Part shown: positions 6,660-29,527 of the stretch, piece after piece
Layout: every line of letters begins with the position of its first letter
How positions within the stretch are numbered: position 1 is the first letter of the stretch
Source: a virus
Taxonomy: Duplodnaviria; Heunggongvirae; Uroviricota; Caudoviricetes
DNA: 39,161 nucleotides
Strand: one strand, 5' to 3'
IMG/VR virus record: IMGVR_UViG_2706794670_000014
Translations under genes and position numbers: made by a program
The notes under the pieces: model-generated
Databases searched by the model: none
What the model was told of the DNA's origin: nothing
Seen by the model: the letters and a program-made list of their open reading frames with translations, nothing else

Positions 6660-7535
6660 TTATATACTTGCAGCCGTCACCCATGCTCCATTTAACAGAT
6701 ACTGCAACGGCCGGTAATACACGCCGCCGACGTTATCTGCCGTATTCTTACCGACATCCTGTACTTTAATTCCGGTAAGAACATTGCCGCCCCCCAGATT
6801 CAGATCCCAGCTTTCCCATGTTCCGGGCATATGTGCGGTCACCGACCCCAGTCTTATGGCGGTTACTGTTCCTGATGAGATAGTGNNNNNNNNNNNNNNN
6901 NNNNNNNNNNNNNNNNNNNNNNNNNNNNNNNNNNNNNNNNNNNNNNNNNNNNNNNNNNNNNNNNNNNNNNNNNNNNNNNNNNNNNNNNNNNNNNNNNNNN
7001 NNNNNNNNNNNNNNNNNNNNNNNNNNNNNNNNNNNNNNNNNNNNNNNNNNNNNNNNNNNNNNNNNNNNNNNNNNNNNNNNNNNNNNNNNNNNNNNNNNNN
7101 NNNNNNNNNNNNNNNNNNNNNNNNNNNNNNNNNNNCGGCGAGATTCTGATCCTTCGCCAGGGCATTAACGTCAGCGGGACCAAGACTGTTTTTTGTGGCA
7201 AGCGTCCCCAGACCAAGATAACCACGGGCCAGACGCTGGGCCTCCGCACCGGCATCAGCAATTTCTTTCAGGTTATTTTTCCGGGAAAAGGCATTCGCAG
7301 CGATAATGGCTTTAATGGACAGCGTAAGCTGGTTTAACTGCGCCTTATCCGGCTGAATACTGGCTTCAGCCAGAATATTCAGCAGTTCGGCCTGGAGAAT
7401 ATTCAGCCAGTCCTGACCAATCCAGCTGATACCTTTTTGTCCGTCACCTTCGGTAAACCAGGTGGTGGTATTACTCTGCGCCGGTGCCAGCGCAGGCATA
7501 TTCGCCACGCCGGAATTATTATCAACATGAAACAT
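6660..7535 (-). CDS. Tail fibre protein (Mu S-like, constant plus currently joined variable part); middle masked by N
   Basis: Position after the baseplate genes. C-terminal segment resembles fibre receptor-binding tips. N-run 6886-7135 lies inside the gene. Confidence 0.65.
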   Translation of the reverse strand: MFHVDNNSGVANMPALAPAQSNTTTWFTEGDGQKGISWIGQDWLNILQAELLNILAEASIQPDKAQLNQLTLSIKAIIAANAFSRKNNLKEIADAGAEAQRLARGYLGLGTLATKNSLGPADVNALAKDQNLAXXXXXXXXXXXXXXXXXXXXXXXXXXXXXXXXXXXXXXXXXXXXXXXXXXXXXXXXXXXXXXXXXXXXXXXXXXXXXXXXXXXXTISSGTVTAIRLGSVTAHMPGTWESWDLNLGGGNVLTGIKVQDVGKNTADNVGGVYYRPLQYLLNGAWVTAASI

Positions 7536-8095: not shown

Positions 8096-9172
8096 GTGAT
8101 TTCTCCTACCGTCAGCAGCTCACTGTCTCCCGCCTGAACTGACGTCAGCGGACTGCGCACTTCAAAATCCTCCAGATTTTTCACCCCTGCCACCGCCCGC
8201 CAGAAAGACGACGGCAGAACCAGACCGCCGGGCCGGGATTCGTTATACAACAGGTCGGTCAGCGCCTGTTTTACGGCCGCCTGATTCTCCGGTGTTTTCG
8301 GGATGATCCTGATGCTGAAGGGCACCGGCTTATTGGTCAGTTTAAACACGGTCACCGTCGGCCCCAGAGGCTGTCCGACAGGCTGGCCGGTCGCCGGATC
8401 ATCATGACTGCGGATATAATCCGCCACCCGCTGAACATCACCGTCACCGGGGAAAATATCCGGGTTATTATCCTGAACAAACGTTACCCCCACGCTGCCC
8501 GCCTGCGGCCATTCCGGGCGGCACCATGCCCGCGTCACGCCCGGCACTTCACGCGCCCAGCGTTCAAANNNNNNNNNNNNNNNNNNNNNNNNNNNNNNNN
8601 NNNNNNNNNNNNNNNNNNNNNNNNNNNNNNNNNNNNNNNNNNNNNNNNNNNNNNNNNNNNNNNNNNNNNNNNNNNNNNNNNNNNNNNNNNNNNNNNNNNN
8701 NNNNNNNNNNNNNNNNNNNNNNNNNNNNNNNNNNNNNNNNNNNNNNNNNNNNNNNNNNNNNNNNNNNNNNNNNNNNNNNNNNNNNNNNNNNNNNNNNNNN
8801 NNNNNNNNNNNNNNNNNNGGTGATACGGTAAACCACGCCATCACTTCGCTGGAGAAGCACACCTTCCTTGATCCCCGCATCCGTGGTCAGCATCAGCTGA
8901 ACCGGCCCGTCCCCCCGAGAGGCAGGCTTACGCATGACGCCCCAGAATGCACAGTGTTTCAGCAGTTCGGCTTCATCGGCTTCGGTCGGGATGATCTGAC
9001 GCGCAATCCAGGCCAGATGCTCATGCTCCTGAGCAGATAACCCTGCCTGAGCGTAAGCAATGGCATTCAGGGTGGTTTCATTCACACCCGGCTGCGAGCC
9101 GGGCAGGCGCTGGCTGATATCCTGCTGTGTCTGCGTGATTAACTGTGCCAGCGGTAAAGGCTGATAAGGCAT
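8086..9172 (-). CDS. Baseplate J-like protein (Mu gp47-like); middle masked by N
   Basis: The N- and C-terminal ORF pieces flank the N-run 8569-8818. Both resemble Baseplate_J family proteins. Confidence 0.6.
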
Positions 9173-12752: not shown

Positions 12753-14714
12753 TCAGGGGCAACAAGCTCCACCCGNNNNNNNNNNNNNNNNNNNNNNNNN
12801 NNNNNNNNNNNNNNNNNNNNNNNNNNNNNNNNNNNNNNNNNNNNNNNNNNNNNNNNNNNNNNNNNNNNNNNNNNNNNNNNNNNNNNNNNNNNNNNNNNNN
12901 NNNNNNNNNNNNNNNNNNNNNNNNNNNNNNNNNNNNNNNNNNNNNNNNNNNNNNNNNNNNNNNNNNNNNNNNNNNNNNNNNNNNNNNNNNNNNNNNNNNN
13001 NNNNNNNNNNNNNNNNNNNNNNNNNACCGGCCCACAGGGCACCACCACCCAGCCGACCGGCACCACGGAACAGCCCGGCAAAACGCCCCAGCCCCATGCG
13101 GTTTCCGGCCGCCGTTAGCAGACCACCGGCACGGCTCATCATACGACCGAAGAAGCCCTGTTTACCGGCACTCTCCGCCAGTTGCTCACCGGCAGTCACG
13201 ACGGTCGTGACACCCCGTCCACGTCCGGGGCCGCGTTTTTTACGGCCGCGCACGGTTTTGCCGTCACCGCTGACCACCACATCCCCGCCACCTGAGGCCA
13301 GGCCACCCGCAGGCCAATTGGTGACCAGCACGGGCTGAACGGCAGCCGGATTTACCCCGGTAAGGAAATTCAGGAACCGGCCAGCGCGTCCGGGCTGCGT
13401 TCCCGGTACAGTGGTCTGCGGTTTGCGGAAGGGCGACGTCAGCACGGAGGTCATCGCCATGCCATAGCGTAAGGGGGTTGCGCCGAGACGTAATGCCCCC
13501 GTCCCCGCAAACCTGAGCACCTTCAGCGCACGGGAGGCGAGATACATATACATCAGGTACTTTGCGGCGGTCTGCGCACCCTGACCAATGCGATCCAGCG
13601 CATCGCCATAACCGGCGTCGCGCAGTGCCTGAAGCGTTTCCCTGACTTTCTGAATGACCCGGTAAAAGCCGGTCGCAGCGTCTCTGGCATACTCAAATCC
13701 CTGATTCAGGGCTGAGGCCGTCTGTGTGGCCAGCTTATCCTGTAAGCCGCTTTTCTGTGCCGCATCAGCATAATCCAGAAAGCCTTTCAGGCTCTTTTTC
13801 AGGCTGTCAAACGGTCCCTTTGCCATCACCTCGCGGGCAAATCCGTCCCAGACATCGCCCATCATGGACGTCATTCCCGTCCAGGAATTCATGGCGTTTT
13901 TCTGGGCACCTTTTGCCTGTTCGGCCATCACCTGAAATAACAGGCGAATGCTGTCCGGTCCCAGTTTTCCTTTCTCGCCTTTCTCACGGATGATCTTCTG
14001 GTTTACACCCAGCTTATCGGCCAGCAACTGGTAAACGTTAATCCCGTATCCGGTCAGAATATTGGCGTCCGCTGCCTGGATACTCTGGCGGGCAAACATC
14101 TGTTTGAGTTGCAGGGACGCACCCTGTGCATCTGACAGTGACCAGCCGTGATAGCCGCCCTGATCCTGAAGCATGGTAATAAAGCGACGGGCTTCCCTGT
14201 CACTCATACCGAACCCGCGACTGGAGGCGTATTCCTGCATAACCCCCGCCAGCCCCCAGGTGGTGTCTTTGGCGTTCTGTACCGCCCAGGCTTTCACTGC
14301 TTCCGTTTTTGCCGTATCGCCATGATTAATGGCGTTGAGACGCAGAATATAGTTCTCCATCTCTGCGGCCGGGCGGATAAAGGCTTTATTAAACCCGTAG
14401 ACCGCAGCCCCTCCCGCCAGCATCCCGTAAAGGTTGCTTATCCGCCCGATGGTGCCGGTAATGCTGCCCTGAAGGCGGTCAAAATCTGACGTCACCGTGC
14501 GGATACTGCCACGAACACCGGCAAGCGTTCGCTGCATACGGGAGCCGACAAGTTCTGTCTCCTGACCGGCACGACGTGCTGCATTTCCAAGACCACCCAG
14601 CCCCGTCCTGCCGGAACGGGAGAATGCCCCCAGCTCCTGTGACCACTGGCGGGATTTGGCAGAAATATTGCCGAGTAAATCGACAATCAGGGAGGCTTTC
14701 AGGTTTTTTGCCAT
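12753..14714 (-). CDS. Tail tape measure protein; C-terminal part masked by N
   Basis: Long Gly/Ala-rich ORF between the tail tube and baseplate genes. ATG at 14714. Confidence 0.7.
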   Translation of the reverse strand: MAKNLKASLIVDLLGNISAKSRQWSQELGAFSRSGRTGLGGLGNAARRAGQETELVGSRMQRTLAGVRGSIRTVTSDFDRLQGSITGTIGRISNLYGMLAGGAAVYGFNKAFIRPAAEMENYILRLNAINHGDTAKTEAVKAWAVQNAKDTTWGLAGVMQEYASSRGFGMSDREARRFITMLQDQGGYHGWSLSDAQGASLQLKQMFARQSIQAADANILTGYGINVYQLLADKLGVNQKIIREKGEKGKLGPDSIRLLFQVMAEQAKGAQKNAMNSWTGMTSMMGDVWDGFAREVMAKGPFDSLKKSLKGFLDYADAAQKSGLQDKLATQTASALNQGFEYARDAATGFYRVIQKVRETLQALRDAGYGDALDRIGQGAQTAAKYLMYMYLASRALKVLRFAGTGALRLGATPLRYGMAMTSVLTSPFRKPQTTVPGTQPGRAGRFLNFLTGVNPAAVQPVLVTNWPAGGLASGGGDVVVSGDGKTVRGRKKRGPGRGRGVTTVVTAGEQLAESAGKQGFFGRMMSRAGGLLTAAGNRMGLGRFAGLFRGAGRLGGGALWAGXXXXXXXXXXXXXXXXXXXXXXXXXXXXXXXXXXXXXXXXXXXXXXXXXXXXXXXXXXXXXXXXXXXXXXXXXXXXXXXXXXXXGGACCP

Positions 14715-17128: not shown

Positions 17129-17417
17129 NNNNNNNNNNNNNNNNNNNNNNNNNNNNNNNNNNNNNNNNNNNNNNNNNNNNNNNNNNNNNNNNNNNNNNNN
17201 NNNNNNNNNNNNNNNNNNNNNNNNNNNNNNNNNNNNNNNNNNNNNNNNNNNNNNNNNNNNNNNNNNNNNNNNNNNNNNNNNNNNNNNNNNNNNNNNNNNN
17301 NNNNNNNNNNNNNNNNNNNNNNNNNNNNNNNNNNNNNNNNNNNNNNNNNNNNNNNNNNNNNNNNNNNNNNNNNNNNNNCAGGCATCCCGGCGCAGGTTTA
17401 ATAAAAATGGTTGTCAT
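17129..17417 (-). CDS. 5' end of a gene with a strong RBS (either the sheath N-terminus or a separate small gp38-like gene); body masked
   Basis: ATG at 17417 with GAGGAA upstream. Its frame differs from the sheath ORF across the N-run, so continuity cannot be decided. Confidence 0.3.
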
Positions 17418-17984: not shown

Positions 17985-18682
17985 ATAAAGCCCTTCTGGT
18001 TGCGCCCGAACACCGCCGCATCAGACTGCACCTGCGGTAAATCCCCGGATTCAGGGGCCGCACCGTCTGTATCCACGCCGACCGGCACGTTACCGTTCAT
18101 GACATCTTTCAGCCAGGCCAGCGCCTCACGGTAACGGTCACGCGCCTGATCGGATGCCCGCTGATCGCACAGGTAATAAAAGGCAATCGTGCAGCAATGC
18201 TGAACAAGGACCGCCGGAACCACCGCCAGCGGCAGCGTGTAACGGGAAGACAGATAGCTGTCGATAAGGGCAGACGCGTCCGTCAGTGCCCGGTTCAGCT
18301 TGCGCGTGTCCGGTTCATCCGAACGGGGCACGGCCAGTAATGGCCTGAGCAAATCCTCGCGGTAACGTGCCCGCATATCGGTTTCGGTGGNNNNNNNNNN
18401 NNNNNNNNNNNNNNNNNNNNNNNNNNNNNNNNNNNNNNNNNNNNNNNNNNNNNNNNNNNNNNNNNNNNNNNNNNNNNNNNNNNNNNNNNNNNNNNNNNNN
18501 NNNNNNNNNNNNNNNNNNNNNNNNNNNNNNNNNNNNNNNNNNNNNNNNNNNNNNNNNNNNNNNNNNNNNNNNNNNNNNNNNNNNNNNNNNNNNNNNNNNN
18601 NNNNNNNNNNNNNNNNNNNNNNNNNNNNNNNNNNNNNNNNNNNNNCAGGAACCCCGCACGACGAAAATGCGTACGACTGCAA
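17981..18682 (-). CDS. Mu gp36-like protein (DUF1320-type); N-terminus masked
   Basis: The C-terminal 130 aa are visible. N-run 18391-18645 covers the start. Confidence 0.45.
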   Translation of the reverse strand: MQSYAFSSCGVPXXXXXXXXXXXXXXXXXXXXXXXXXXXXXXXXXXXXXXXXXXXXXXXXXXXXXXXXXXXXXXXXXXXXXXXXXXXXXXXXXXXXXXTETDMRARYREDLLRPLLAVPRSDEPDTRKLNRALTDASALIDSYLSSRYTLPLAVVPAVLVQHCCTIAFYYLCDQRASDQARDRYREALAWLKDVMNGNVPVGVDTDGAAPESGDLPQVQSDAAVFGRNQKGFI

Positions 18683-21667: not shown

Positions 21668-22999
21668 TTAATCAATTTGTCCTTCCAGCACCTCAAGCAT
21701 TCCGCCCCGGATATCCGATTTCAGCTTATCCATATTGATAACCCGGTAAGCATTCACAATCACATCCAGTTTGTCGGGCTGACGTTTCAGACTGTACGGT
21801 GCATTAACGGCAATCTGCACACTGCCATCCTGATTTTCCACGATATACATCAGATTGTTGTGCCGTTTGTCCCACAGTACCGCTTTTGGCCTTGCCAGCA
21901 TTGCCGGTAAGCGCCCGAAGTCCTCCGGCGTCAGAGCGATGCCGTCATTCTGATGTTTCACACTGTCCGCATGGAGCACATTTTTACCGCTCATCGCCAG
22001 CAGGCGGGCCGGTGGCGTTCCCGTCCGGCTTTCCACTGCCTGCGCAATGCTTTCAGTCATAAAGCCCAGCGTGCGGATATCGTTACCACCTCGCCGGGTC
22101 TGCATGATGTTTTTTGCCCAGATGCGGAACGCCAGCTGCCGCTCCGGGCTGTTGTTCATCTCCTGAACCACCATTTCCCGTAACGCCGGGCTTTTCACCT
22201 CGATCAGTTTGCGGATCAGCGCCTGGTCTGTGCCGAACGCTGCCGAGCCGGGGTTATATGACCAGCCCACATCCGGTGTCATGGTTCTGGCGCCATCTGA
22301 ATATGTGGTCACCGGCATTTCTCTGACTTCTCCGGTCTGTTTATCCACGCCAGCCTCAACATTGCGGGTGGAGAGATGATCCTCACCGGATGAAACGGAT
22401 AACCCCATTGCATCCAGACGGGCCTGAGACAATGGCCGCACACGGCAGCGGCAGTTCCAGCCATTGGGCGNNNNNNNNNNNNNNNNNNNNNNNNNNNNNN
22501 NNNNNNNNNNNNNNNNNNNNNNNNNNNNNNNNNNNNNNNNNNNNNNNNNNNNNNNNNNNNNNNNNNNNNNNNNNNNNNNNNNNNNNNNNNNNNNNNNNNN
22601 NNNNNNNNNNNNNNNNNNNNNNNNNNNNNNNNNNNNNNNNNNNNNNNNNNNNNNNNNNNNNNNNNNNNNNNNNNNNNNNNNNNNNNNNNNNNNNNNNNNN
22701 NNNNNNNNNNNNNNNNNNNNCTGCTTTCCCCACCATCCCAGCTTTTGCAGGCGTGGCGTCAGTGTGCGGATAAATTCTTTCTGTGAAATCCCCTCATCAA
22801 TGGCCCGCTGCACTTCGGCCTGTAATGTGGTTACCACATCCAGCCGTGCCGTTTTTGCTGCCGTGAATGAGCGGGCATGAACATCCGCGTCTGTTTCGAA
22901 CCAGTTCCAGCTGATATGCGCCCCTTTGGCGCGGAAGTATGCCACCGTCTCTTTTGAGGGAAGCGTGGCGGCATAACCTAAATCAATCCCCTGAGCCAT
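21668..22999 (-). CDS. Head morphogenesis protein (Mu F / SPP1 gp7 family); middle masked
   Basis: NGWNCRCR motif typical of this family. Position after the portal gene. Confidence 0.75.
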   Translation of the reverse strand: MAQGIDLGYAATLPSKETVAYFRAKGAHISWNWFETDADVHARSFTAAKTARLDVVTTLQAEVQRAIDEGISQKEFIRTLTPRLQKLGWWGKQXXXXXXXXXXXXXXXXXXXXXXXXXXXXXXXXXXXXXXXXXXXXXXXXXXXXXXXXXXXXXXXXXXXXXXXXXXXXXXXXXXXXPNGWNCRCRVRPLSQARLDAMGLSVSSGEDHLSTRNVEAGVDKQTGEVREMPVTTYSDGARTMTPDVGWSYNPGSAAFGTDQALIRKLIEVKSPALREMVVQEMNNSPERQLAFRIWAKNIMQTRRGGNDIRTLGFMTESIAQAVESRTGTPPARLLAMSGKNVLHADSVKHQNDGIALTPEDFGRLPAMLARPKAVLWDKRHNNLMYIVENQDGSVQIAVNAPYSLKRQPDKLDVIVNAYRVINMDKLKSDIRGGMLEVLEGQID

Positions 23000-24556
23000 C
23001 CAGCATCCCCTTCATTTCCGCAGCAAACATGGCATCACTGAGCAGCGTCATCAGGCGGGAATCATCCATTTCACGGTAAAGGGCAGGCAGGTCTGCCAGT
23101 GCCTCCGCCAGCCCCCGCGTTCTGATGACATCAATGACCGGCTCCAGCACCGGATCGATGGCCTCCTGTAAGCGGCGGGCAGGCACCGCGTCCCCCATGT
23201 CGTCCAGTTCATCACGCGGCGTGTTTTTCGCTTCCGGCAGTCGGGCTGAAAGCGCCGTCTGTTCTGTCTTTTCCTGTTTTTCCGGTAGCGTTTCCCTGTC
23301 AGGCATGGCCGGTTCATTACTGCTCTGACGGACACGGAATATGGCTTCACCGGGCGTGGGCTGTGGAATACCGGTCTGATCCCGTACCCAGGGATCAGGA
23401 ATATCCATCCCCGCACTGAGTTGCATCACCGCACTGGCTATTTTGGTGATATCCCCCGGTTCTTTGGTCTGGAAACAGATACGCGGCAGGCGACGGATAT
23501 CAATGGCGTGGGCGGTGTTCAGGGCATACAGCGGATACACCAGATCGCGGTTCAGGGTTGCAGCCAGCTGGCGTAAATCAGAATCCCTGATTTCCCGGCG
23601 CACCTCGTTATGCACCTCACCCAGCGAGCGCGCGCCTTTGTCTCCGGCTTCTGTGGTCAGCGTGCCGCCGANNNNNNNNNNNNNNNNNNNNNNNNNNNNN
23701 NNNNNNNNNNNNNNNNNNNNNNNNNNNNNNNNNNNNNNNNNNNNNNNNNNNNNNNNNNNNNNNNNNNNNNNNNNNNNNNNNNNNNNNNNNNNNNNNNNNN
23801 NNNNNNNNNNNNNNNNNNNNNNNNNNNNNNNNNNNNNNNNNNNNNNNNNNNNNNNNNNNNNNNNNNNNNNNNNNNNNNNNNNNNNNNNNNNNNNNNNNNN
23901 NNNNNNNNNNNNNNNNNNNNNGGCCAGATAAGCGTTCTGACAAGCCCCGTCGCACCACCGTAGCCGGTGCGTGAACGCGACTGATGCACTATCCAGCCAA
24001 AGGGCTGAAACGCCACCCCGGCATGGCTGCCGTCACGCAGCCGCAGTTCGCTCAAATCATCCGGGTTAAGGCAGAAATGCCCGCTGTCACGCCAGCGGAT
24101 GGCGCGGATGATGTGCATTTTACCGAGCATCCCGTGCTCAATTTCCATGCAGGAATAGCCCTTCAGGATGGCATCCGTGGCGTCAAACAGCATGGCATCA
24201 AACCAGTCTGCGGAATGCAGATATTCGTCGAGCATTTCCGCGTCCTTTTTCTCATTCGCGCTGGCGTTCGGTGGCGGCTCAATACTCCATGGCACCCCCT
24301 GAATGGCAAGACGTCGCTTGCCCAGCTCCGCAAAAAGGTGGGTGTCCTTTTCTTCAATATCAGCGGCCAGATCGGACTGGGCAATCAGATCGCCACGTTC
24401 AGCCCCGCGAAGGCACTGCGCCGCCCGGTTCGGGGTGATACCCGAAGCCGGATGTTCAATATAACGGCTGGCAATCTGCGGAATATCCAGCGCGGCACTC
24501 TGCATCTCCGGGTCAAAGGAGAAAGGTTTTCCGTCAGTATCAATGATGCGTCCCAC
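22983..24556 (-). CDS. Portal protein (Mu gp29-like); middle masked, frame across the mask not resolved
   Basis: N- and C-terminal portal-like pieces are both open into the N-run 23672-23921. Combined length of about 524 aa matches Mu portal size. Confidence 0.65.
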
Positions 24557-26223
24557 TACCAGCCCCCCCGATCAAATTCATGATATGCCTCATCGTCATC
24601 ACGATAACCGCCCTCCATTGCCCGCGACCGCTCCTGTAGCGCCTGACAGGCTGATTCATCCAGGATGAAGCCCTCCATGTATGACGCCCGGTTTGCCATA
24701 CAGAGCGCCACGGCAAAATCACCATGGCGGCGGGCGTTCGCAGCCGTTGCGTTCTGGTCCTTCGTGCGCCCCTTGTCGATTTGCGGGATACCATTCACTA
24801 CCTTCACATGGCGCAAATCATCAAGCGTGGTCTGATGGCGGGCGACGAGGATATTCTGATCTTCAAACTCGGCTTTCAGTTTTGGCATCCACTCGCCGTA
24901 CCACTTCGGCGACAACATCACGCAGTCGATGATGTCCGGGCCAAAGGCCAGCAGTGCGGCCTCTGCCAGATAGCCGCCGTTACCGGTGGCGTCGAACGCC
25001 GCACCGACCAGCGCCGGAACGCGGGTCAGGATGTACATCATCACCTGTTCCTGCTGGGCATACGGCAGGTTGCGCAGCTCCACGCGAAACACCTCGCGCT
25101 TTGCCAGGGATTCGGTGATTTCCAGCAGCACAAAGCAGGACAGGTCACCGGTGCGGGCAAAGTCTTCCCCGAAGCTGAAGCGGGAACGGGGATTTAATTT
25201 CTCTAAAAGCGGTTTTAAATGTTCTTCACACCAGGTTAAAACTTCCGATTCACGCAGCCATGCGGCACGGCTGATGAAGTTGTCCGGGGCTTCAAACGTC
25301 AGAATCGGGATGTCGCGGATCATCGCCATTTCAATAAGCGCGTGGGGGATATAGGCACCGCCGGATTTTTTCGGGATACAGCCGTATTCCTCGTCGGCAT
25401 CCTCACGGGTCGGGGCGTTTTTGTAGAGATCATCACGCCATTTCTGCTCGCTTTCCGGTGACCATTCCTGATCGGTGACGTAACAGATACGACGGTACAG
25501 CCCGTCCGCAATGGCATCATCCAGGGTTATGCGGTGGACGCTGTAATCCTTGCGCCCCTCGCGGGCTTCCTGAATGTACTGATTAAACAGATTATCGACG
25601 CCGTTATGCGTGGAGATAATACGCACGCGCGCGCCCCACATAGTGAGCGCCATTGCCGCCTTGAGAAGCTCATCCAGTGACTCGTGGAACGCGGCTTCAT
25701 CAATCACCACATCCCCCTGAAGGCCGCGCAGGTTTGACGGACGGGAAGACAATGCCTGAATTTTGAATCCACTGTTCGGAAAGCGGATCATGTAGGTCAA
25801 AATTTCTTCTTTTTTATCCCGATCCCAGAATGTCTGCTCATACACATCAGCATCTGCCAGCTGGTTAAAGGCACGGGAGAACAGCGCGCAGGCAGAAATA
25901 TATTCCAGCGCCATCTCCTGCTTTGATCCCACATAAAACACATTGCGGCCACCACGACGCTTCGGTTTTGCAGCAGTAATGACGTTACGCCCGGCTTCCG
26001 CCCAGGTAAGACCGGTGCGGCGGGATTTCTCCGCGATGCAGACCTGACTTTCATCTGCAAACCAGCGGGCCTGATAATCCAGAAACACCGGCATATCACC
26101 GGGCAAATCAAGGCTGTCCGGCACATCCACGCCCAGCAGGGCTTTTTCACCTGACAGATCAATTTTGCGGGGAGGCGTCATTTGCATCAGTGAAGGCGAC
26201 GTTTCTCTGGCTTTGTTCATCAT
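24556..26223 (-). CDS. Terminase large subunit
   Basis: 555 aa with ATPase and nuclease-like regions, located upstream of the portal gene. ATG ATG start. Confidence 0.85.
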   Translation of the reverse strand: MMNKARETSPSLMQMTPPRKIDLSGEKALLGVDVPDSLDLPGDMPVFLDYQARWFADESQVCIAEKSRRTGLTWAEAGRNVITAAKPKRRGGRNVFYVGSKQEMALEYISACALFSRAFNQLADADVYEQTFWDRDKKEEILTYMIRFPNSGFKIQALSSRPSNLRGLQGDVVIDEAAFHESLDELLKAAMALTMWGARVRIISTHNGVDNLFNQYIQEAREGRKDYSVHRITLDDAIADGLYRRICYVTDQEWSPESEQKWRDDLYKNAPTREDADEEYGCIPKKSGGAYIPHALIEMAMIRDIPILTFEAPDNFISRAAWLRESEVLTWCEEHLKPLLEKLNPRSRFSFGEDFARTGDLSCFVLLEITESLAKREVFRVELRNLPYAQQEQVMMYILTRVPALVGAAFDATGNGGYLAEAALLAFGPDIIDCVMLSPKWYGEWMPKLKAEFEDQNILVARHQTTLDDLRHVKVVNGIPQIDKGRTKDQNATAANARRHGDFAVALCMANRASYMEGFILDESACQALQERSRAMEGGYRDDDEAYHEFDRGGW

Positions 26224-26468
26224 GCTTTACCTGTCAGAATGCTTTTGATTCGGGACTCAAGCTCTTCAGTCATCACGTCCACGCCGCTCAACTCATCAGT
26301 GGCAGCCTCTGCCAGCAGCGAATGCAGTTGTTCCAGGGATATTTCCCCGGCAATGCTGAGTTCAGTCAACTCACGACATACCTTTATGGTTTCAGGAGGT
26401 AACTGTGTTGCAAGACTGAATGCTTTCTGATGGGCACTGCTCATCAGTGAGCGGTTATCTGTTGCCAT
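26220..26468 (-). CDS. 82-aa protein paralogous to the C-terminal tail of the terminase small subunit
   Basis: Strong AGGAGGTG RBS. C-terminus ATDELSGVDVMTEELESRIKSILTGKA parallels the TerS C-terminus VTDELRGVDGMSEQIEFRIRQMLLGKA. Confidence 0.55.
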   Translation of the reverse strand: MATDNRSLMSSAHQKAFSLATQLPPETIKVCRELTELSIAGEISLEQLHSLLAEAATDELSGVDVMTEELESRIKSILTGKA

Positions 26469-26478
26469 GATTCACCTC

Positions 26479-27060
26479 CTACGCCTTACCCAGCAGCATC
26501 TGCCTGATACGGAATTCGATCTGCTCGCTCATGCCATCCACGCCGCGCAACTCATCGGTGACCGCATTCGCCATCTCTTCAGCAAATGCGGCCCGGATTT
26601 CTTTTTCACGCTTAATGCTGCGCTCGGCGGCACTTTCTGCACGCTGTGCCGACAGGAGGATGTCCTTAATAAGGCGCATATCCACATCGCTGTCGCTGTT
26701 CAGGGATTCGGTGGCGGCACGCAGACGGCGGTACATCAGGGCACGGGACATCTCCAGAATCAGTGCCGTGGTTTCACCGGTCGGCTTATCCCCCAGTTCG
26801 GCCATCATGGCTTTTGTCTGCTCGCGTAAATCACGCAGATTACGGGCAATCAGCTCATTACGGGAGGCTTCCCGGCTGATGGCCGCCGGTGAGAGCTGCT
26901 GCTCTTCCGGCAGACCTGCTTCACGGATCAGACGGTTGATTTCCTCGCGGATCTGGACCTGCGTCAGACGTTTTTCACGCAGCATTTCCAGCAGCGGCTT
27001 ACGGATGCTGTCGGGGAGCAAATCCACCTTGCGTACACGGCCACGCGCTGGCTTATCCAT
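26479..27060 (-). CDS. Terminase small subunit (Mu gp27-like)
   Basis: 193 aa, basic N-terminus and helical body, immediately upstream of the large subunit region. Confidence 0.65.
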   Translation of the reverse strand: MDKPARGRVRKVDLLPDSIRKPLLEMLREKRLTQVQIREEINRLIREAGLPEEQQLSPAAISREASRNELIARNLRDLREQTKAMMAELGDKPTGETTALILEMSRALMYRRLRAATESLNSDSDVDMRLIKDILLSAQRAESAAERSIKREKEIRAAFAEEMANAVTDELRGVDGMSEQIEFRIRQMLLGKA

Positions 27061-27062
27061 CG

Positions 27063-27353
27063 TTACCCCCTTGCGCGTGGTTTCTTCACACCCGGAACGG
27101 TGGCGCGGCCTTCCGCCACATCCTGACCCCGGCCGGTCAGTTCAGCGATGAAATAACCGTTAACAAGCGTGCGCTTACGCACCAGTCCCTGCTCGGCAAG
27201 CCAGGCAATGTGGGTATGAACGGTGTCGCGGGACACGCGGTGACCGTAATCATCCAGGCAGTCCTGAAGCACGGATTCGCCCAGTTCGCCGTTGTAATCC
27301 GCCAGCGACCGCAGAATGACAAGACGCTGATCTTCAGTAATGAAATCACTCAT
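27063..27353 (-). CDS. Hypothetical 96-aa protein (Mu gp26-like by position), possibly winged-helix
   Basis: ATG at 27353. No motif recognised with confidence. Confidence 0.4.
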   Translation of the reverse strand: MSDFITEDQRLVILRSLADYNGELGESVLQDCLDDYGHRVSRDTVHTHIAWLAEQGLVRKRTLVNGYFIAELTGRGQDVAEGRATVPGVKKPRARG

Positions 27354-27657
27354 TGTGTTTTTTCCTTACAGCCTGCTCCAGCAGCAGTTCGTTCTGATGG
27401 GAGACGGATTTCAGGGTGGCATTGGTGGCCTTAAGCTCACCGCGCAGGGTGGTGATTTCGATATTGAGTCTGTTCACCTCCTGCTGCGTGGGCAGGCCGG
27501 AAATCCGGCTCTCCACCCGCTCAACCCGGTCGGAGAGTTTTTCAAAGGCCTCGCGGGGGACAAAGGTTTTGCGCATCAGCGCCATGAAGATCCCCCCGGC
27601 TGTGGCCGTTGCCGACAGGATCGGCACGACATAATCTTTAACGATGCTGACCCACAT
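27346..27657 (-). CDS. Membrane protein with one transmembrane helix and a coiled coil (Mu gp25-like)
   Basis: Hydrophobic segment VVPILSATATAGGIFMAL followed by heptad-like sequence. Lies in the lysis-proximal region. Confidence 0.45.
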   Translation of the reverse strand: MWVSIVKDYVVPILSATATAGGIFMALMRKTFVPREAFEKLSDRVERVESRISGLPTQQEVNRLNIEITTLRGELKATNATLKSVSHQNELLLEQAVRKKHNE

Positions 27658-27875: not shown

Positions 27876-28433
27876 TTACTTCGTCTTTCCTGCCGGAACA
27901 GCAGTCGNNNNNNNNNNNNNNNNNNNNNNNNNNNNNNNNNNNNNNNNNNNNNNNNNNNNNNNNNNNNNNNNNNNNNNNNNNNNNNNNNNNNNNNNNNNNN
28001 NNNNNNNNNNNNNNNNNNNNNNNNNNNNNNNNNNNNNNNNNNNNNNNNNNNNNNNNNNNNNNNNNNNNNNNNNNNNNNNNNNNNNNNNNNNNNNNNNNNN
28101 NNNNNNNNNNNNNNNNNNNNNNNNNNNNNNNNNNNNNNNNNNNNNNNNNNNNNNNNNNNNNNNNNNNNNNNNNNNNNNNNGCACCGTTGCCAGTGACCGG
28201 CGGACAATGCTCTGCTGTTCCTCGCTGTGCTGCATGTTCTGCTGTTTTTCATTCGTGGCCGCCTTGCTGATTTGTGAAATGAGTTGCAGGGTGCGTTGCT
28301 GGTTTGCCAGCACCAGACGGGCTTCGTCCCGTTCACGCACAAGCACATGATTATTGTCCTCAAGGCGCTGCGTCTTCTGGTGCATTCCCCATACCACGGC
28401 AGCCAGCACGCTCATCACCCCCAGCGCCGCCAT
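27876..28433 (-). CDS. i-spanin-like protein (Rz-like); C-terminal part masked
   Basis: ATG at 28433 with GGAGG upstream. N-terminal transmembrane helix AALGVMSVLAAVVWG followed by a coiled-coil-like sequence, downstream of the endolysin. Confidence 0.45.
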   Translation of the reverse strand: MAALGVMSVLAAVVWGMHQKTQRLEDNNHVLVRERDEARLVLANQQRTLQLISQISKAATNEKQQNMQHSEEQQSIVRRSLATVXXXXXXXXXXXXXXXXXXXXXXXXXXXXXXXXXXXXXXXXXXXXXXXXXXXXXXXXXXXXXXXXXXXXXXXXXXXXXXXXXXXXXXXXXXXXTAVPAGKTK

Positions 28434-29046: not shown

Positions 29047-29527
29047 TGTTACGCTGTCTCATGGTGTTCTCTGAGTCAGCGTAACCGTGAGGAAAAGGGG
29101 GCAGGANNNNNNNNNNNNNNNNNNNNNNNNNNNNNNNNNNNNNNNNNNNNNNNNNNNNNNNNNNNNNNNNNNNNNNNNNNNNNNNNNNNNNNNNNNNNNN
29201 NNNNNNNNNNNNNNNNNNNNNNNNNNNNNNNNNNNNNNNNNNNNNNNNNNNNNNNNNNNNNNNNNNNNNNNNNNNNNNNNNNNNNNNNNNNNNNNNNNNN
29301 NNNNNNNNNNNNNNNNNNNNNNNNNNNNNNNNNNNNNNNNNNNNNNNNNNNNNNNNAGCAGGTTCAATCCCCTGACGGTGCAGTTCAGCACTGATCACAT
29401 CAACCAGGTCCCGCAGCGTGCCGGGCCAGTTCTTTTTCAGCTCATCATCAGGAATATCATCCAGACGGTCAATCAGCGCGTGCAGCTGTTCGCTGTCACC
29501 AAACATGCTCATCTGTGTTTCAGCCAT
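29018..29527 (-). CDS. Mor/C-family transcription activator (N-terminus visible, remainder masked; true stop unresolved)
   Basis: The N-terminal 57 aa resemble the Mor N-terminal dimerisation region. N-run 29107-29356 covers the rest, so the ORF-track end is not reliable. Confidence 0.5.
   Translation of the reverse strand: MAETQMSMFGDSEQLHALIDRLDDIPDDELKKNWPGTLRDLVDVISAELHRQGIEPAXXXXXXXXXXXXXXXXXXXXXXXXXXXXXXXXXXXXXXXXXXXXXXXXXXXXXXXXXXXXXXXXXXXXXXXXXXXXXXXXXXXXLPPFPHGYADSENTMRQRNNAKTPRTPA

Follow-up and report, generated by a model that had tools for sequence, protein, structure and literature searches.

An 82-codon open reading frame, ORF82, separates the putative small terminase gene gp27 from the large terminase gene TerL in an E. 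coli Mu-like prophage. It probably arose at a recombination joint where these two genes meet, in one sub-lineage of such prophages. This joint left two diverged copies of the gp27 tail: one still ends gp27, and the other stands in frame behind a 51-codon segment, with the original stop/start overlap with TerL kept. The reading we adopt, in which we place about even confidence, is that ORF82 is a real, probably translated, dispensable and almost unconstrained product of the joint that couples ribosomes to TerL. All positions refer to the window, the whole 39,161-nt stretch of DNA that was analysed.

Table 1. Features of the gp27/TerL junction (positions in the window)
Feature	Position	Strand	Remarks
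gp27, putative small terminase subunit (Phage_Mu_Gp27 / DUF3486)	26479..27060	-	PF11985 E=3e-33, positions 1-173 of 173; phrog_426 'terminase small subunit'
gp27 C-terminal tail, residues 163-193, MANAVTDELRGVDGMSEQIEFRIRQMLLGKA	26482..26574	-	near-invariant gp27-family segment among members compared
gp27 stop TAG (26479-26481) and 10-nt spacer	26469..26481	-	together form the AGGAGGTG Shine-Dalgarno
ORF82	26220..26468	-	82 codons and TGA stop; full-length phrog_30922 member; RefSeq 'hypothetical protein'
ORF82 N-terminal 51 codons	26316..26468	-	unrelated to gp27; first ~40 residues common to the 67-aa variant P0012
Tail copy in ORF82, residues 52-82, LAEAATDELSGVDVMTEELESRIKSILTGKA	26223..26315	-	paralogous to the C-terminus of gp27; prediction gives a helix end, a loop and a terminal helix
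TerL, large terminase subunit	24556..26223	-	phrog_2, E=5e-43
Divergent cassette relative to ORF-less relatives	26160..26540	-	both flanks ~95% identical; includes the 259-nt extra segment

Genomic context and expression signals of ORF82

Our analysis confirmed the 82-aa frame that the original prediction had placed between the two terminase genes, together with the near-consensus ribosome-binding site claimed for it. The Shine-Dalgarno AGGAGGTG sits at 26473-26480, 4-5 nt 5' of the ATG, in upstream DNA that reads TAG-GAGGTGAATC-ATG, and the motif is kept in seven of eight IMG/VR loci, the eighth (L027) having no motif match and its frame being left unread. Depending on the allele, translation would start at ATG or GTG. 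The frame is packed tightly against its neighbors, with the 10-nt spacer to gp27 on one side and, on the other, a TGA stop that overlaps the TerL ATG (GCATGATGAAC). This TGATG overlap is kept across alleles, and the TerL start kept in all of them is the second ATG (26220), which shares one base with the ORF82 stop. The first ~20 codons of TerL are unusually variable, with a pN/pS of 0.6 over the first 50 codons versus 0.10 for the whole gene.

The 82-codon frame is open in 22 of 23 related loci (15/15 in one set and 7/8 in the other, L027 being the unread one) and is exactly 82 codons long in all 22 complete loci read. Because only 2.5% of mutations create a stop, a frame would stay open over ~54 variants by chance with P about 0.25, and the open frame on its own carries no significant weight as a sign of selection for coupling. 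Draft and metagenome data also contain frameshifted or truncated versions (P0010, P0011). No sigma-70-like promoter was detected in 25900-27400 and no terminator-like match flanks ORF82 on its own strand; ORF82 thus lacks the promoter and terminator of its own by which a moron is recognized, which would restrict its expression to late stages of the lytic cycle. In some genomes the ORF82-carrying phages are present in two to three copies, which makes ORF82 compatible with an active element.

The ORF82 tail is a diverged copy of the gp27 C-terminus

The original prediction had also proposed that the end of ORF82 parallels the C-terminus of the small subunit, and this similarity proved statistically well supported. 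BLASTP aligned gp27 residues 163-193 with ORF82 residues 52-82 without gaps (18/31 identical, 24/31 positive, E=3e-10), and the identities, TDEL-GVD-M-E--E-RI---L-GKA, are those originally listed. The Smith-Waterman score was 90; shuffled sequences averaged 25 (sd 4, maximum 46), with 0/2000 reaching 90. The AF2 model of gp27, which is of low confidence (pLDDT 64), places an N-terminal helix pair at residues 17-47, then helices of 22-44 residues, a loop at 172-178 and a terminal helix at 179-189, whereas ORF82 is modeled as four short helices (pLDDT 71.6); the helix-end/loop/helix arrangement is predicted alike in the two tails.

At the DNA level the ORF82 tail matches the gp27 tail of its own genome at 63/96 nt and that of ORF-less relatives at 75/96 nt. 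Synonymous divergence between the two tails of one genome is saturated (pS 0.66), and pS against the gp27 tail of the ORF-less relatives is 0.42. Judged from the sequences compared, the C-terminal 31 residues of gp27 hardly differ between E. coli and Vibrio, which makes them an obvious mutagenesis target in Mu packaging studies. ORF82 is homologous to the gp27 tail motif ELRG-DG-SE-LE-RI---LLGKA, yet the R, G, S and L are replaced in all of its alleles (R to S, G to V, S to T and L to T) at positions that do not vary among the four gp27 tails examined, from E. coli, Mu and Vibrio; one allele also carries an L to P change within the terminal helix. Despite heavy synonymous divergence, 14-15 of the 19 invariant gp27-tail positions are still present in the ORF82 tail. 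The long-term dN/dS between this tail and the ORF-less gp27 tail is 0.31, rising to ~0.6 once assigned to the ORF82 branch. The value of 0.31, taken with the positions kept, suggests that some constraint on the ORF82 tail is possible.

ORF82 is confined to a subset of E. coli Mu-like prophages

The ORF82 family (phrog_30922) occurs only in Mu-like prophages of E. coli. The profile of this family matches ORF82 at E=6.9e-52 (174.7 bits, residues 2-82 on positions 2-82 of 82), and gp27 residues 162-193 also match it (E=6e-8). ORF-specific DNA was detected in 25 of 230 complete E. coli genomes carrying this prophage type, and ORF82 is missing from ~90% of otherwise ~95%-identical prophages. Precisely the 259-nt segment is absent from the ORF-less genomes, where the end of gp27 falls on the TerL ATG. 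Lysogens with the long form include E. coli 102651 and JE86-ST05. Nor is ORF82 a conserved Mu gene, a possibility raised along with the original prediction: Mu has no gene in this slot, gp28 starting 7 nt after gp27, while the gp27 and TerL genes abut in a Vibrio Mu-like phage that has no ORF82, and no match to ORF82 turned up in searches of D108/SfMu and Salmonella relatives.

Among 1.84 billion representative proteins, an exhaustive search returned six matches at E<=0.001, four of them closely related to ORF82 or to its N-terminal part and two of them long repeat proteins matched over a short stretch only. A word-indexed protein search returned 11 matches, and those with a named source were all from E. 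coli; the 90% cluster by itself comprises 79 member sequences. Whole ORF82 gave no match to PF11985 at E<=1; the 31-residue tail alone aligns with gp27. Pfam, NCBIfam, PADLOC, PDB sequence and Foldseek-PDB searches returned no usable match to ORF82, and nothing marked it as a known defense or anti-defense protein, with PADLOC empty and the NCBIfam matches far below cut-offs. We rejected three IMG/VR matches (L033-L035; 41% identity, residues 34-81) as chance, as they fall within an unrelated protein of 492 aa encoded by a high-GC phage.

ORF82 probably arose at an old recombination joint

Compared with the ORF-less relatives, the cassette spans the 3' half of the gp27 tail, ORF82 and the start of TerL to about codon 20. 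The N-terminal 51 codons of ORF82 have a GC content of ~0.48-0.51 versus 0.57-0.59 in gp27. Residues 1-51 of ORF82 have no similarity to gp27 (1253/2000 shuffles score equally well), which led us to reject an origin of the N-terminus from the gp27 interior, and no second copy of this part was found in complete E. coli genomes or plasmids. The 67-aa variant P0012 occupies the same slot, with an N-terminus like that of ORF82, no tail, and then a 120-nt spacer. The two agree at 21/36 of the first 36 codons (57% over residues 1-56 by phmmer), the shared part being only residues ~12-36, with an uncorrected pN/pS of 0.42 for the N-terminal part. DNA unique to this variant was unmatched in complete E. 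coli genomes and phage records. The variant also shows that TerL is expressible behind a 120-nt spacer, and a weak AGGT motif belonging to TerL itself lies upstream of it, two observations that run counter to coupling.

Synonymous saturation between the tail copies points to an old recombination joint and not to a recent duplication. We considered an in-situ tandem duplication of the tail plus the first ~50 TerL codons, in which case ORF82 would be the N-terminus of TerL fused to the tail, and rejected it: the protein-level similarity was weak (score 37; reached by 0/2000 shuffles against TerL 1-80 and by 35/2000 against whole TerL), the DNA outside the tail carried no signal (global 209/2000, local 754/2000), and the saturation between the two tails opposes it as well. 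A recent deletion between repeats as the source of the ORF-less form was likewise set aside, as the three tails are 66-78% identical and their 93 nt give no direction. The gp27 tail of the ORF-less form itself looks chimeric, its 5' half being nearer the long-form gp27 tail and its 3' half nearer ORF82.

ORF82 evolves almost neutrally between two constrained genes

We assessed selection in 15 loci representing 10 alleles, with a transition/transversion correction applied. ORF82 carried 36 nonsynonymous and 18 synonymous variants, a small sample of 54 variants over 246 nt that yields an omega of ~0.88-0.9 (p=0.38 versus neutrality). The N-terminal part alone gave an omega of ~0.95 and the tail alone ~0.58 (p=0.2). 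The corresponding nonsynonymous to synonymous counts were 10:62 for gp27 (omega 0.07) and 39:119 for TerL (omega 0.14), and the gp27 tail held 2 nonsynonymous and 17 synonymous variants among alleles (omega ~0.05). ORF82 differed from gp27 (p=2e-9), as did tail from tail (p=0.009), by Fisher's exact test. Collectively, these data indicate that the evolution of ORF82 in the population is indistinguishable from neutral drift, with the proviso that a mixture of purifying and diversifying selection can also give an omega near 1.

Proposed translational coupling and competing explanations

ORF82 probably persists by preserving translational coupling to the next essential gene. Selection would mainly preserve an open frame from the strong Shine-Dalgarno to the TerL start, and ribosomes would be delivered to TerL by translational coupling, a step that we infer from the stop/start overlap only; in the ORF-less relatives the 3' end of gp27 would do the same job. 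The peptide sequence itself, tail copy included, would be left to drift, and whatever binding the tail retains for the partner of the gp27 tail, presumed to be TerL, would be weak and not required for phage propagation. The opposite extreme, that ORF82 is non-coding recombination filler, open by chance and giving no stable product, fits the near-neutral evolution, the chance probability of an open frame over ~54 variants and the disrupted versions P0010 and P0011. We nevertheless consider it very improbable given that a near-consensus AGGAGGTG is kept at the right spacing in the alleles checked, that the start is only ever ATG or GTG, that all complete loci read have the same length and that the stop stays on the TerL start.

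The original prediction went further and proposed that a free copy of the tail could modulate terminase assembly or packaging initiation. ORF82 would then be a free docking tail that binds TerL or the gp27 oligomer and, when packaging begins, tunes TerS:TerL assembly or competes with it, its amount held in fixed proportion to TerL by coupled translation. The tail is homologous to a near-invariant gp27 segment, shares its predicted fold and retains most of its invariant positions, with an omega below that of the N-terminal part; the strong ribosome-binding site, the stop/start overlap and the inclusion of the variable TerL N-terminus in the same cassette are also consistent with such a role. 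In lambda gpNu1 and P22 gp3, a short flexible C-terminal segment of TerS docks on the TerL N-terminus (PMC9611059), and contact of the gp27 tail with TerL is presumed by analogy with these two proteins, our search having found no structure of, or literature on the structure or function of, gp27/DUF3486. Set against this are the four invariant residues lost in every ORF82 allele, a tail omega that is not significantly below 1 and about tenfold above that of the gp27 tail, the absence of the gene from most prophages that are otherwise nearly identical, as well as from the further Mu-like phages examined, and a tail-less variant in the same slot. These features leave the step from tail copy to modulator unsupported, and we regard it as a possible but less likely reading, one that is doubtful overall.

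A stronger form of the docking idea, in which ORF82 is a stand-alone peptide whose tail still engages TerL or the gp27 ring and tunes the start of packaging, or acts as a decoy against a competing element or host sensor, would read the omega near 1 as diversifying selection; it is unlikely, and if true would be the first instance in which a phage controls its own terminase through a detached small-subunit tail. Alternatively, the functional part may be the N-terminal two-helix module, a small accessory protein (for example anti-defense or host-directed) engaged in an arms race, with the tail as an accidental appendage. Residues ~12-36 are common to ORF82 and the 67-aa variant, always in the same slot, the GC content is lower than in neighboring genes, and an omega near 1 with patchy presence is typical of fast-turnover accessory genes. 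However, this part is under no detectable constraint, either among alleles or against the 67-aa variant, it matches no Pfam, NCBIfam, PADLOC or PDB entry and no fold, and it lacks a promoter and terminator of its own, which renders this explanation quite unlikely, slightly more so than the stand-alone peptide.

A functional tail copy would pinpoint the element with which gp27, the Mu-type small terminase, binds its partner, and would provide a natural competitor peptide for dissecting TerS/TerL assembly in a transposable phage. On present evidence, ORF82 offers a clean, datable case of boundary recombination making an in-frame ORF from the end of an essential gene.

Comparison with known systems

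Homology to the Mu gp27 family (PF11985) covers the last 31 residues of ORF82, with a predicted helix end, a GVDGMS-type loop and a terminal helix ending LLGKA. Unlike members of that family, ORF82 has neither the N-terminal DNA-binding helix-turn-helix region nor the long central helices of the oligomerization core, has replaced four invariant residues and evolves about tenfold faster. The same gene family is already cataloged as phrog_30922, in an entry that carries no function and no remark on homology to the gp27 tail. The tails of lambda gpNu1 and P22 gp3 are likewise short C-terminal small-subunit segments, and it is this analogy that lies behind the docking idea (PMC9611059). They have no sequence relationship to ORF82, and no free-standing tail protein is described there.

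Small satellite-encoded proteins, SaPI Ppi and E. coli PICI Rpp, bind the small subunit of the helper phage and interfere with or redirect its terminase. ORF82 is comparable in concept, as a small helical protein that would act on terminase by binding, but Ppi and Rpp are not known to derive from a terminase tail, the phage itself carries ORF82 within its own late operon, and the searches made found no similarity between them. Partial gene duplications and ORFans also occur at the mosaic joints of temperate phage genomes. The gp27/TerL junction resembles such joints in its short divergent cassette between ~95%-identical flanks, its presence/absence polymorphism, its duplicated gene end, its three alternative contents in one slot and its lower GC. 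It departs from the usual mosaic joint in that the duplicated piece is in frame and carries a packaging-protein motif that is conserved and looks functional, and in that ORF82 keeps a stop/start overlap with the next essential gene.

The gp27 tail recurs in a separate small ORF

Late genes of this Mu-like E. coli prophage occupy the minus strand, with ORF82, an 82-codon ORF, between the genes for the putative small terminase subunit gp27 and the large terminase TerL. The original prediction, that ORF82 duplicates the C-terminal tail of gp27, was borne out. Using BLASTP, we observed an ungapped alignment of ORF82 residues 52-82 with gp27 residues 163-193 (18/31 identical, 24/31 positive, E=3e-10), and its statistical support was confirmed by shuffling: the score is 90, whereas 2000 shuffles average 25 and peak at 46, so that none comes near. 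The profile of phrog_30922, a family with no assigned function of which ORF82 is a full-length member, is also matched by gp27 residues 162-193 (E=6e-8). By the shuffle test, the first 51 residues of ORF82 bear no relationship to gp27. In AF2 models of modest confidence the common segment folds alike in ORF82 and gp27: a long helix ends, a loop of 7 residues follows (GVDGMS / GVDVMT), and a short helix closes the chain. Nor is ORF82 a conserved, unrelated Mu gene, as no such gene is present in Mu.

Among the gp27 family members compared, the C-terminal ~30 residues are nearly unchanged, reading ...ELRGVDGMSEQLESRIKGILLGKA in E. coli forms without ORF82 (ORF-less forms), ...ELRGQDGISEELEQRIRDVLLGKA in Mu and ...ELRGVDGMSEQLEDRIRGILLGKA in a Vibrio phage whose gp27 is only 42% identical overall. 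Such constancy marks the tail, at the level of sequence, as certainly important for gp27. The C-termini of lambda gpNu1 and P22 gp3 bind the TerL N-terminus (PMC9611059), and by analogy the gp27 tail may dock on TerL. Structure and literature searches returned no solved structure of, or paper on, the gp27 family.

Features of the gp27/TerL region and related loci
Feature	Coordinates	Strand	Remarks
Lysozyme, spanin genes, TraR/DksA-like protein		-	first in gene order around ORF82
DUF2730 protein	27346-27657	-	after TraR/DksA-like gene
gp26-like protein	27063-27353	-	directly upstream of gp27
gp27	26479-27060	-	PF11985 end to end, E=3e-33; phrog_426 'terminase small subunit'
ORF82	26220-26468	-	82 codons
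ORF82 residues 8-46	26316-26447	-	
TerL	24556-26223	-	555 aa; matches large-terminase PHROGs
TerL residues 1-39	26107-26223	-	
TerL first ~20 residues	26160-26223	-	variable in related loci
Portal, then Mu F		-	after TerL in gene order
Divergent stretch	~26160-26540		long versus ORF-less form
Masked N blocks	6886-7135, 8569-8818, 12776-13025, 17129-17378, 18391-18645, 22471-22720, 23672-23921, 27908-28180, 29107-29356		
P0012 slot	5001-5330 of L005		Logan SRR34397675 contig; also L006-L010
gp27 with internal TAG	4121-4702 of L003		E. coli 2015C-3121

Ten nucleotides separate the gp27 TAG from the ORF82 ATG (TAG plus spacer, AGGAGGTGAATC-ATG), and the ORF82 TGA overlaps the TerL start (GCATGATGAAC). 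The Shine-Dalgarno motif is kept across loci, with ATG or GTG as start codon, and the frame is open at 82 codons in 22/23 related loci; the remaining IMG/VR locus, L027, has no RBS motif match and its frame is unread. A search for an ORF82 promoter or terminator found none. The gp26-like protein belongs to phrog_436 ('VpaChn25_0724 family') with weak winged-helix matches (HTH_12, HTH_20, ArsR/HTH_5), and the corresponding protein of a Vibrio Mu-like phage carries an ArsR-type regulator annotation; because the position of its gene upstream of gp27 is kept from Mu to Vibrio, it might act in DNA recognition for packaging. Nine N-masked blocks of ~250 nt each (two are 255 and 273) break several genes in the window, including portal, spanin-region and Mor-region genes; 24556-27353 is free of them.

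Distribution and origin of ORF82

A word-indexed search of 5.8 billion proteins returned 11 matches to ORF82, six of them full-length and at least 79% identical, and every match with a named source is from E. coli. Exhaustive phmmer against 1.84 billion representatives gave six matches at E<=0.001, four being closely related to ORF82 or to its N-terminal part. The prophage type occurs in 230/5426 complete E. coli genomes, and only 25 of these 230 contain ORF82-specific DNA; ORF82 is dispensable for this prophage type. ORF-less genomes, O157, O145 and O111 strains among them, are missing precisely 259 nt, and their gp27 ends directly at the TerL ATG; the gap between gp27 and the following gp28 is 7 nt in Mu and 0 nt in the Vibrio phage. 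Some genomes carry the ORF82-bearing element in two or three copies, which is consistent with an active phage. Six contigs from metagenomes or read assemblies have instead a 67-aa ORF (P0012) between gp27 and TerL; it matches ORF82 over its first ~40 residues and has a different C-terminus without the gp27-like tail. Downstream of P0012 lie 120 nt of AT-rich non-coding spacer and then a TerL whose N-terminus also differs (MSKRTGEEKIKPDTGLIKLSPPRKI). Searches of complete E. coli genomes and phage records gave no match to P0012-specific DNA. Given these alternative contents, the gp27/TerL junction is a small hot spot of mosaicism that occurs in three states or more.

Among ORF-less prophages, gp27 of E. 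coli 2015C-3121 is interrupted by an internal TAG (EEQ*LSP) and listed as a pseudogene, which makes this copy probably defective; P0015, the common protein cluster of the ORF-less gp27 form, has 272 members and is intact. Close ORF-less relatives in LC727881.1 and LC727895.1 (L001) are inserted in Stx2c- and Stx1a-converting lambdoid phage genomes, a Mu-like phage nested within another prophage.

Long and ORF-less forms are ~95% identical on both flanks; their divergence is confined to a stretch that begins in the 3' half of the gp27 tail, spans ORF82 and stops near TerL codon 20. The ORF82 tail matches its own gp27 tail at 63/96 nt and that of ORF-less relatives at 75/96, and the long-form and ORF-less gp27 tails agree at 73/96. 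Synonymous sites are saturated between the two copies within one genome (pS 0.66), ruling out recent in-situ duplication of the tail, and pS is 0.42 between the ORF82 tail and the ORF-less gp27 tail; gene conversion between the two copies is absent. Most simply, two different Mu-like genomes would have undergone an old staggered recombination that fused a small downstream ORF, in frame, with the tail of another gp27, and the fused product would later have moved as a cassette via homologous exchange in the flanks. Tandem duplication of the tail plus the TerL 5' end was rejected, as a weak protein-level hint had no DNA support. ORF82 8-46 and TerL 1-39 show weak ungapped similarity (11/39 identical), a score reached by 0/2000 shuffles against TerL 1-80 and 35/2000 against whole TerL; at the DNA level we found only a common 9-mer, TCACTGATG, at nearly equal distance from each tail end. 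This similarity would fit an ancient tandem duplication; it is probably chance.

Selection and competing explanations

Selection was assessed in 15 loci with 10 distinct ORF82 alleles, correcting omega for transition bias at four-fold degenerate sites (kappa 4.8).

Variants and omega in ORF82, gp27 and TerL
Region	Nonsynonymous	Synonymous	Omega
ORF82 whole	36	18	~0.88 (p=0.38 vs neutrality)
ORF82 N-terminal part	26	12	~0.95
ORF82 tail	9	7	~0.58 (p=0.2)
gp27 whole	10	62	0.07
gp27 tail	2	17	0.05
TerL	39	119	0.14

ORF82 differs from gp27 (Fisher's exact test, p=2e-9), as do the two tails (p=0.009). Long-term dN/dS between the ORF82 tail and the ORF-less gp27 tail is 0.31, or roughly 0.6 on the ORF82 branch because gp27 contributes almost no replacements. 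Four residues that do not vary among the four gp27 tails compared are replaced in ORF82 (R to S, G to V, S to T and L to T), and the terminal helix of one allele has L to P. Just 2.5% of mutations would introduce a stop codon, so the open frame is not significant by itself. The first ~20 residues of TerL vary far more than the remainder (pN/pS of 0.6 over the first 50 codons vs 0.10 for the whole gene) and change along with the content of the upstream slot. In P22, TerS binds at the TerL N-terminus (PMC9611059), and the variability could reflect either co-variation with the tail or linkage alone.

We rank first, with about even confidence, that ORF82 is a by-product of the recombination joint, translated from a strong RBS, in which what is mainly kept would be the open frame ending on the TerL start codon, through translational coupling; the gp27 3' end gives an equivalent arrangement in ORF-less relatives. 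Second, and unlikely, is a mechanism of the kind in the original prediction: through its tail, ORF82 would modulate or compete with TerS:TerL assembly, or would assemble together with gp27. The survival in ORF82 of 14-15 of the 19 positions invariant in the gp27 tails compared favors this mechanism, which is possible but less well supported than the by-product reading. That ORF82 serves as a terminase-docking peptide or decoy encoded by the phage itself seems distinctly unlikely. A function in the N-terminal module common to ORF82 and the 67-aa variant, with the tail incidental, comes third and is improbable, and non-translation, against which the constant 82-codon length, kept Shine-Dalgarno motif and ATG or GTG start all argue, comes last as highly improbable. 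The feature is real and neat, and ordinary phage mosaicism most likely explains it.

Comparison with known systems

ORF82 had no family match in Pfam or above the cut-offs of NCBIfam, no defence-system match in PADLOC and no fold match. It is already catalogued in phrog_30922 and as RefSeq hypothetical proteins, in entries that do not mention the gp27-tail homology. It is no member of the gp27/TerS family, as whole-domain match, HTH region and helical core are absent and only a diverged copy of the C-terminal motif is present. We found no description of a stand-alone small-terminase tail protein in the literature. The satellite proteins Ppi and Rpp bind the TerS of the helper phage; unrelated in sequence to ORF82 and with a different partner, they are its nearest functional analogies.
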